Below are positions 62,258 to 64,000 of a stretch of 64,000 bases of DNA, one piece after another. Position 1 is the stretch's first letter. Every line of letters starts with the position of its first letter. The stretch lies in sequence record PQ287649.1; one strand, written 5' to 3'. Below the pieces are notes generated by a model. It was not told where the DNA came from. It was given only the letters and a program-made list of their open reading frames with translations, and searched no databases. This stretch comes from Pseudomonas phage HHBS47_1. A program made the position numbers and the translations under genes.

Positions 62258-62434
62258 GTGAAAGCAGAACTAATCAACAATGTCATTGCACTGGCGAATA
62301 CCGCGGAGTTCGTTAAACAGACGATCCGTAAGGTAGGACTGGAATACATCGCGCCGCTGGATCCCAGTATTCAGGCTGAGAAGATCAGCAAGGCCCTCAC
62401 GAAGCGTGTTGTTAAACAAGGAGCGAACCAATGA
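62258..62434 (+). CDS. small hypothetical protein (58 aa, GTG start)
   Basis: AGGAG RBS 9 nt upstream; stop overlaps the next ATG (ATGA); below the track cutoff. Confidence 0.3.
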   Translation: MKAELINNVIALANTAEFVKQTIRKVGLEYIAPLDPSIQAEKISKALTKRVVKQGANQ

Positions 62435-62985
62435 TCAGTAAGGACAGCCTGGCGTTGGCAGAGAACATCGCCGTCGCGCTCCCTGAAGGCACTGTAGTCC
62501 CGTCCACCCCGATCCTTCAGGGGTTGAATACCCTGAGTTATGGAGCGTTCCCGTACGAGGAGGACTTCCGGGATAAGGTGGTTGAAGTGACGTCCGAGAT
62601 CACGGAGCATTCGGCAGCGATTGAGGCGGGGAGTGACAAAGCCGCTGAGACCATCCGCGGTGCGTTCGAGATGGTCAAGTCCTACGGTGTCCCGATGGCG
62701 GACGCCGTCCAGGAGAAAGTGGGTCTGCTGTACAGCCGAGGTGATCTGAACTGGGCGTCGTTGCGTCATTTCAATATCACGTACATCAATGTCTCGGATC
62801 CGTTCTTTGACTCTGCTATTTATCCCACTGAAGTCAAGAACAAGGCGCTGTCGTTTGACAGTGTGGGTTTGGATGTCCTGAAACGGTTGGAGTTTGAATT
62901 CGCAACGGAACAGGAGATCCGGGATTACGTGGCAACGTCTCACCCAGAGATTAACGCCATCCTGGATTCCAAACTCGAAGATTGA
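62431..62985 (+). pseudogene. 5' part of a gene split by a frameshifting 127-bp tandem duplication
   Basis: the ORF runs through repeat copy 1 and stops at a TGA created at the copy1/copy2 junction. Confidence 0.55.
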
Positions 62986-63107
62986 CAGTGTGGGTTTGGA
63001 TGTCCTGAAACGGTTGGAGTTTGAATTCGCAACGGAACAGGAGATCCGGGATTACGTGGCAACGTCTCACCCAGAGATTAACGCCATCCTGGATTCCAAA
63101 CTCGAAG
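62854..63107. repeat. perfect direct tandem duplication, 2 x 127 bp
   Basis: 62854-62980 and 62981-63107 read identically (ttgacagtgtgggtttggatgtcctgaaacgg...ccaaactcgaaga). Confidence 0.8.
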
Positions 63108-64000
63108 ATATCGTGTACGCGTTCTACGCGATTACGATGCTGGCCGATCTCAAATCCCTTTTCCACTACAAGGGTGAGGCGACCTTTGACTTCACGCGTG
63201 TGAAATCGGTACGCCTTAACCTGCTGCTGAAGACCTACGTGATCTTGACGAAGATGTACAGTCAGGAAGACCCGGCGTTCCTTGTTAAGGGGTCGCTGGA
63301 AGATTACCGGGAATATATCAACCTGCTGTGGAATGGGATGACCCATTACCTCATTGCGTTGAAGAACACGGTTCAGCTTTACCGTAACCGTAAAGCGGCT
63401 ATCTACGAGGCCGAAGCCTCTAAGTTGGTGGACTTTAAACCGGTTGATGCCCTGGACGTTACCGTTAAGGGATTGAGTGGTAATGTCGTCGTGTATTACA
63501 GCGATGAGGTCCTCAAGACGGTAACCGGTAACGGGGGGAGTTTGAACGACTGTGTGATCGCCTCGATCTATGGGCGTCTCACCGGTCGTCCGAATGGCTT
63601 CCTGGACCTCATCAATAACCCTGACCTGGTTAAAGACTTGACAGCTGACTACTTCGAGGGTATTCACCGTCCACTGAACCAAGATGCCCGTAAACATTTC
63701 ATTAACAACAGTGTTGGGGCTATTGTTCAGTTCCTGAATGAACGGGAAGAAGCTCGGGCGGCGTTGTATGAGCATTTGGATGCAGAAGGGTCTTCGGTCC
63801 GTACCCTCATTGAAGAGAACCTGAGCGGTGACCTGGACGTTCTCTACACCCTCTACGAGAACGACGTCCGCAAGAGCAGTGGCGTTGAACCTGTGAGCAT
63901 GGAGATTGAGGCTCAACGGGCGAAAGAGGTCATCTTCCAAACCAAACTCGTCCCTAACTTCTTGAAGTTGTTGGGGTGTGAACTGGCTGCGGAGATCATT
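62981..64000 (+). pseudogene. 3' part of the same gene, open to the window end, in the +1 frame relative to the 5' part
   Basis: copy 2 translates to the same peptide as copy 1 (DSVGLDVLKRLEFEFATEQEIRDYVATSHPEINAILDSKLED) and continues IVYAFYAITMLADL... with no stop before position 64000. Confidence 0.55.

Follow-up and report, generated by a model that had tools for sequence, protein, structure and literature searches.

An exact 127-nt tandem duplication that splits a virion protein gene in the record of an EL-like jumbo phage is very probably an untrimmed assembler overlap

The 64,000-nt stretch of Pseudomonas phage HHBS47_1 DNA analysed here (sequence record PQ287649.1; hereafter the window) contains two copies of a 127-nt unit within a gene for a virion structural protein, and as written the gene is divided between two reading frames. 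We believe that the second copy is very probably an untrimmed overlap left by the assembler and not part of the phage genome, and that the real phage has one copy and an intact gene. A preliminary description of this DNA had offered either a recent duplication or an assembly artefact as the explanation. It is the artefact that our results favour: the length of the unit equals a SPAdes k of 127, all 12 relatives compared are single-copy, and this gene is the sole broken one of 62 orthologs.

The window belongs to an EL-like Pseudomonas aeruginosa jumbo phage (genus Elvirus, Chimalliviridae) and is approximately 97-98% identical to EL, with which it is collinear and in the same orientation; its base 1 corresponds to EL 140,038 and its base 64000 to EL 204,020. 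Its interrupted gene is orthologous to that of EL gp190 (YP_418223), a protein of 516 aa annotated as 'virion structural protein'. It lies in an order of genes that runs from the split virion RNA polymerase beta genes through the endolysin, a 58-aa gene, gp190 and a 242-aa virion protein to the S80 prohead protease. The endolysin (61348..62226, plus strand) combines a peptidoglycan-binding domain with a lytic domain, and its protein is 100% identical to EL gp188. The interrupted gene had been placed just downstream of the endolysin, which is roughly right; the 58-aa gene, the ortholog of EL gp189 (62258..62434, plus strand), stands between the two and shares its last 4 nt with the beginning of the gp190 ortholog.

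EL gp190 matches PHROG 14074 (phrog_14074; virion structural protein, head and packaging) over residues 1-515 with E = 7.6e-185. It has no match in Pfam, and a comparison with PDB sequences returned only noise (best E = 0.27). The AlphaFold model of gp190 (pLDDT 83) had no match in the PDB at E <= 0.001 when searched with Foldseek, and its matches in BFVD were all to uncharacterised proteins, encoded by other jumbo phages of the nucleus-forming kind (RisingSun, VP4B, RSL2, Noxifer and Kwan among them). Full-length homologs of 20-33% identity were found by tblastn in jumbo phages of Erwinia, Klebsiella, Vibrio, Aeromonas, Stenotrophomonas and other hosts. Thus, gp190 is a broadly conserved virion component of nucleus-forming jumbo phages, annotated as structural; a search of the literature on EL gp190 or phiKZ gp175-177 yielded nothing usable.

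The two copies of the unit were confirmed as identical and in tandem, as the preliminary description had it, both by Tandem Repeats Finder and by a repeat search of the whole 64-kb window. The former reported a single array, at 62855-63109, with a period of 127, 2.0 copies, 100% matches and no indels. In the latter, the copies were 100% identical with no spacer between them, and they were the only direct repeat longer than 42 nt. Copy 1 occupies 62855..62981 and, in the native frame, encodes residues ~142-184 of gp190; copy 2, the redundant one, follows head-to-tail at 62982..63108 (both on the plus strand). The coordinates first given for them, 62854-62980 and 62981-63107, are one base too far left, and the literal strings at those positions differ at their first base (T versus A). 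The left flank GCGCTGTCGT leads into the start of the unit, TTGACAG, and the end of the unit, CTCGAAGAT, into the right flank ATCGTGTACG. At the junction of the copies CTCGAAGAT is followed directly by TGACAGTGTGG, and the junction 30-mer consists of CCAAACTCGAAGAT and then TGACAGTGTGGGTT. The identical run measures 128 nt, that is, 127 nt and one extra T, since base 63109 (T) matches base 62982. The microhomology at the junction is therefore 1 nt (T), which is about chance level and is compatible with an artefact and with a real duplication alike. A perfect, adjacent repeat of 127 nt cannot itself have arisen by chance.

The effect on the gene follows from the length of the unit. The 5' open reading frame (62431..62985, plus strand) consists of 184 codons and a TGA, and represents residues 1-184, at the N terminus, of the EL gp190 ortholog, truncated by the shift of frame; residues 1-184 of EL gp190 align by tblastn with window 62431-62982 in frame 1 at 99.5% identity. 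That this TGA ends the upstream frame, and that 127 is 3n+1, had been recognised correctly. However, the stop is not created exactly at the junction: it occupies 62983..62985, bases 2-4 of copy 2, and the same T-TGA-C is present in copy 1, where it is out of frame. The TGA is in frame only because of the +1 shift (127 = 3x42+1), not because of the junction itself. The remainder of the gene, residues ~143-481, continues in the +1 frame from 62984 to 64000 (plus strand) and runs off the end of the window; residues 132-481 of EL gp190 align by tblastn with window 62957-64000 in frame 2. Translation bore out the earlier statement that this downstream frame encodes the same 42-aa peptide (DSVGLDVLKRLEFEFATEQEIRDYVATSHPEINAILDSKLED) a second time and stays open to the end of the window, base 64000. 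Likewise, the removal of one copy was expected to give a single reading frame of at least 470 aa, and it gives a continuous one of 481 codons to base 64000, hence at least 481 aa, in which 479 of the 481 residues match EL. Besides the duplication, this copy of gp190 contains no lesions.

To place the duplication among relatives, the gene was extracted from five GenBank genomes (EL, phiRU, PaBa1, GXNNE2 and MIZ-Pa99) and from seven Logan contigs, which were assembled independently from different sequencing runs. Each of these 12 EL-like genomes or contigs has one copy of the unit and an intact 516-aa reading frame; the two-copy arrangement, whose presence in related phages had been named as a possible refutation, is carried by none of them. 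With one copy removed, the window's reading frame has 99.2-99.8% protein identity to the five GenBank relatives over 481 residues and has the same neighbours, whereas as written it is in two frames. In all seven INPHARED matches, 2,701 bases of the window align in two pieces to 2,571-2,574 bases of the record, which is one unit fewer. The protein cluster at 90% identity has 24 members, and among the 15 listed 14 are of 516 aa and one is a 172-aa partial sequence on a 779-nt contig. The more distant homologs of gp190 are also single polypeptides, of 509-524 aa. Furthermore, searches with the junction and with lineage-specific k-mers gave no match in viral_contigs, metagenome_contigs or genome_contigs. 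Exact look-ups of the 184-aa product, the gp187 ortholog (with two alternative starts), the gp186 ortholog and the GroEL-like protein returned no record; that of the endolysin retrieved only ~98%-identical relatives, and the closest variant of gp190 (P0028) led to a contig that is 97.9% identical to the window.

The single copy in the relatives differs from the unit in the window at 2-6 positions. At position 101 of the unit, both copies in the window have C, whereas all five GenBank relatives have T. Since the two copies share this lineage-specific base, the second copy was made from this genome's own sequence. Comparison of gp190 between the window and its relatives gave substitutions by codon position of, for example, 5/0/19, with 1-5 of the 481 residues differing; the great majority of the changes are at third positions, and the gene is under strong purifying selection.

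The rest of the window gives no sign of similar damage. By tblastn, 60 of the 62 EL proteins encoded wholly in the interval have a single full-length match in one frame, and the ortholog of gp183, examined separately as a reading frame, is intact over 2,543 codons. Thus, all 61 others are intact and gp190 alone is broken; the gene for gp127 is cut by the start of the window. With the 61 other orthologs intact, the sequence is clean elsewhere, which is what one expects from a short-read assembly, and the duplication is its one anomaly.

How an assembler could leave such a repeat is readily envisaged. The largest k-mer permitted by SPAdes is 127 (10.1101/096412), which is the period found here. 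An EL-like genome would close into a circle in a de Bruijn assembly graph, and SPAdes at its largest k would output that circle as a linear contig whose last 127 bases are the same as its first 127; contigs adjacent in the graph would likewise share an overlap of 127 bases. If such a contig were circularised and its start moved to the first base customary for EL, or if two contigs were butted together, without trimming in either case, the result would be a head-to-tail duplication of 127 nt. The old end of the contig, which is arbitrary, would have landed within the gp190 ortholog, and the frameshift would then be only apparent. That the PQ287649.1 sequence was assembled in the SPAdes manner at k = 127 and then rotated or joined is our inference. 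In keeping with an overlap of this kind, the copies are strictly identical and directly adjacent, are missing from independent related assemblies, and lie at an arbitrary site inside a constrained gene.

Artefacts of this class are documented. The setting '-k 21,33,55,77,99,127' is a common one in phage assembly, where it gave a contig with overlapping ends (PMC8530038), and three single-contig phage assemblies made with SPAdes had '127 bp artefactual DTRs', which were taken out as a product of the assembly (PMC9331655). Like these, the repeat in the window is perfect, is exactly 127 nt long, has an arbitrary position and has no counterpart in related genomes. In contrast to the DTRs, which were at contig ends, the copies in the window are adjacent and internal, and a further step of rotation or joining would be needed to bring them there. 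A 79-bp repeat in the short-read assembly of the przondovirus Tokugawa was also an artefact (PMC10438801). Both are short exact repeats in a finished phage assembly, outside any real terminal repeat, that cause errors of annotation. However, they differ in length (79 versus 127 nt) and in the nature of the evidence, which for Tokugawa was a hybrid re-assembly and Sanger sequencing and for the window is the comparison of sequences.

Practice within the genus agrees with the proposed rotation, as does the collinearity of the window with EL. The records of phiRU and MIZ-Pa99 start at exactly the first base of EL, which means that they were rotated. The GXNNE2 record (vB_PaeM_GXNNE2, PV400809.1; bases 1-400 and 209299-209698) starts and ends within a tail-fibre gene, which appears in the annotation as two misc_features, 'similar to tail fiber', split by the arbitrary point of linearisation; the ends of raw contigs therefore do fall inside genes. 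None of the four related linear GenBank records examined has an untrimmed 127-nt terminal overlap, which is a point against the artefact.

The best of the other explanations is that the duplication is real and very recent, the product of illegitimate recombination or replication slippage, and that gp190 is now a pseudogene or is made as two overlapping pieces, but we consider this unlikely. There is nothing physically implausible in such a structure, a microhomology of 1 nt would be in keeping with illegitimate recombination, and a real duplication could measure 127 nt by coincidence; the identity of the copies would then imply an extremely recent event. We estimate, however, that a natural event would have had roughly a 1-in-hundreds chance of matching the maximum k of SPAdes exactly. 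A real duplication would also have inactivated or divided a conserved protein that all relatives keep at full length and under strong constraint, and neither the 12 related genomes or contigs nor the cluster members listed contain it. If the gene were split, its pieces would be the N-terminal 184 aa and a C-terminal fragment, possibly made by re-initiation at the GTG at 62990, five bases past the stop. The downstream frame does offer this GTG and a TTG at 62996, 5-11 nt after the TGA, and termination-reinitiation is conceivable, but its start codons all lack a ribosome-binding site at the right spacing. Moreover, growth to a titre sufficient for sequencing would be unexpected in a phage whose virion gene is broken. 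The isolate could be viable if gp190 is not needed under laboratory conditions, or if the pieces co-assemble, the C-terminal one being supplied by termination-reinitiation at GTG 62990.

A less probable account, to which we give only slight weight, moves the fault from the assembly to a later step: the linear record would keep a 127-nt terminal overlap, and the 64-kb window would have been cut across its joined ends, treated as circular. This would leave the same signature as an assembler overlap, and the coordinates of the window, taken by themselves, fit such a wrap-around as well as they fit a rotated record. However, the start of the window lies at ~140 kb in records with the EL origin, which a rotated record fits somewhat better. 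The wrap-around is a variant of the same artefact, and its biology is the same, namely one copy and an intact gene.

We find it scarcely credible that the two-copy gene is functional and is read by a +1 (or -2) frameshift of the prfB type at GAU-UGA-C, to give a 558-aa protein with an internal repeat of 42 aa. The +1 frameshift site of prfB is CUU-UGA-C. The window resembles this gene for RF2 in that a UGA in frame is followed by C and the +1 frame downstream is open, but the resemblance is superficial: GAU in the P site would be unable to re-pair on AUU (62980-62983), CCAAACTCGAAGAT contains no Shine-Dalgarno-like stimulator upstream of the site, and the arrangement is absent from all relatives. 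In addition, the 42 duplicated residues lie in a helical part of the protein that is predicted to fold with confidence (pLDDT ~84-93). Lacking the slippery P-site codon, the stimulator and the conservation, the window belongs to the prfB group neither as a class member nor in mechanism, and the suggestion that the gene needs +1/-2 frameshifting has to be given up. The idea that the virion DNA has a real, short terminal repeat in direct orientation was rejected as well, as the site is within conserved coding sequence and relatives lack the repeat.

The minus strand opposite gp190 contains open reading frames at 62371..62943 and 62951..63940, in a codon-aligned antisense frame. These mirror frames had been pointed out in the preliminary description and are indeed present, but they are a by-product of codon usage and not coding. 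The antisense frame is open because TTA, CTA and TCA codons are all missing from the gp190 gene; their mean over the genes of the window is 1.5%, and the chance of finding none in 516 codons is ~3e-4. The frame is free of stops over 517 codons in 10 of the 12 relatives and is interrupted in the other two (L004 and L012), and substitutions in gp190 at sense third positions are at antisense first positions. On both grounds we rejected the mirror frames as genes. The open antisense frame probably reflects a strong codon bias in a well-expressed virion gene.

We regard the duplication as ordinary and as very probably a leftover assembler overlap, the outcome being a correction of the sequence and a general rule for screening. 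If it is an artefact, the deposited sequence has 127 nt in excess, the gp190 ortholog would appear in annotations as a pseudogene or a pair of fragments, and comparisons of pangenomes, core genes and proteomes among phages of Elvirus and Chimalliviridae would be distorted. As a screen, we propose that any exact tandem duplication whose period equals a common assembler k (55, 77, 99, 127 or 141) and which breaks an otherwise conserved gene be presumed an untrimmed overlap unless sequencing reads prove the contrary. Should the duplication be real, it would show a gene of a nucleus-forming jumbo phage caught in the act of fission by duplication, and would be a modest curiosity for the tolerance of such a virion protein to being divided.

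Several other elements of the window and of the related records were observed in passing. The virion RNA polymerase beta gene is interrupted by a 415-nt group I intron (59812-60226, plus strand), and its two parts correspond to separate CDSs in the annotation of EL, gp186 (1067 aa) and gp187 (357 aa). The Rfam model Intron_gpI matches at 59777-60181 with 39.3 bits (E = 4e-7), just below the gathering score. Exactly these 415 nt are missing in the relatives L006, L011 and GXNNE2, and L006 encodes one fused protein of 1439 aa; the insertion is preceded by a T and its last base is G, which is what a group I intron should show. Introns in RNA polymerase genes of jumbo phages have already been described, for example in PhiPA3 (PMC11620839). 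A second group I intron match, to the full Rfam model, is found at 56013-56385 (plus strand; 46.2 bits, E = 3e-9), directly after the gene for an HNH endonuclease (54745-56016, the EL gp185 ortholog) and before the gp186 ortholog. Within it, a segment of 64 nt (56036-56099) shares 86-91% identity with DNA that is unannotated in Vibrio phage VP4B and Klebsiella phage phiKp_32, a likeness that suggests a mobile intron core common to distant jumbo phages.

A counterpart of EL gp130 (124 aa) is absent from the window at ~2057-2511 by tblastn at E <= 1e-5, with both neighbours conserved, which looks like the replacement or loss of a small gene relative to EL. The MIZ-Pa99 record has a Straboviridae taxonomy line although the phage is an Elvirus. 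Finally, four direct repeats of 42 nt (2737-2778, 11553-11594, 23861-23902 and 24376-24417) share the core TCAAAyCTACATyATT...GGGTGA; at least three of the four appear to match sites annotated in EL as 'putative phage promoter' (142,913; 151,700; 164,008), and they are most likely the known EL promoter motif.
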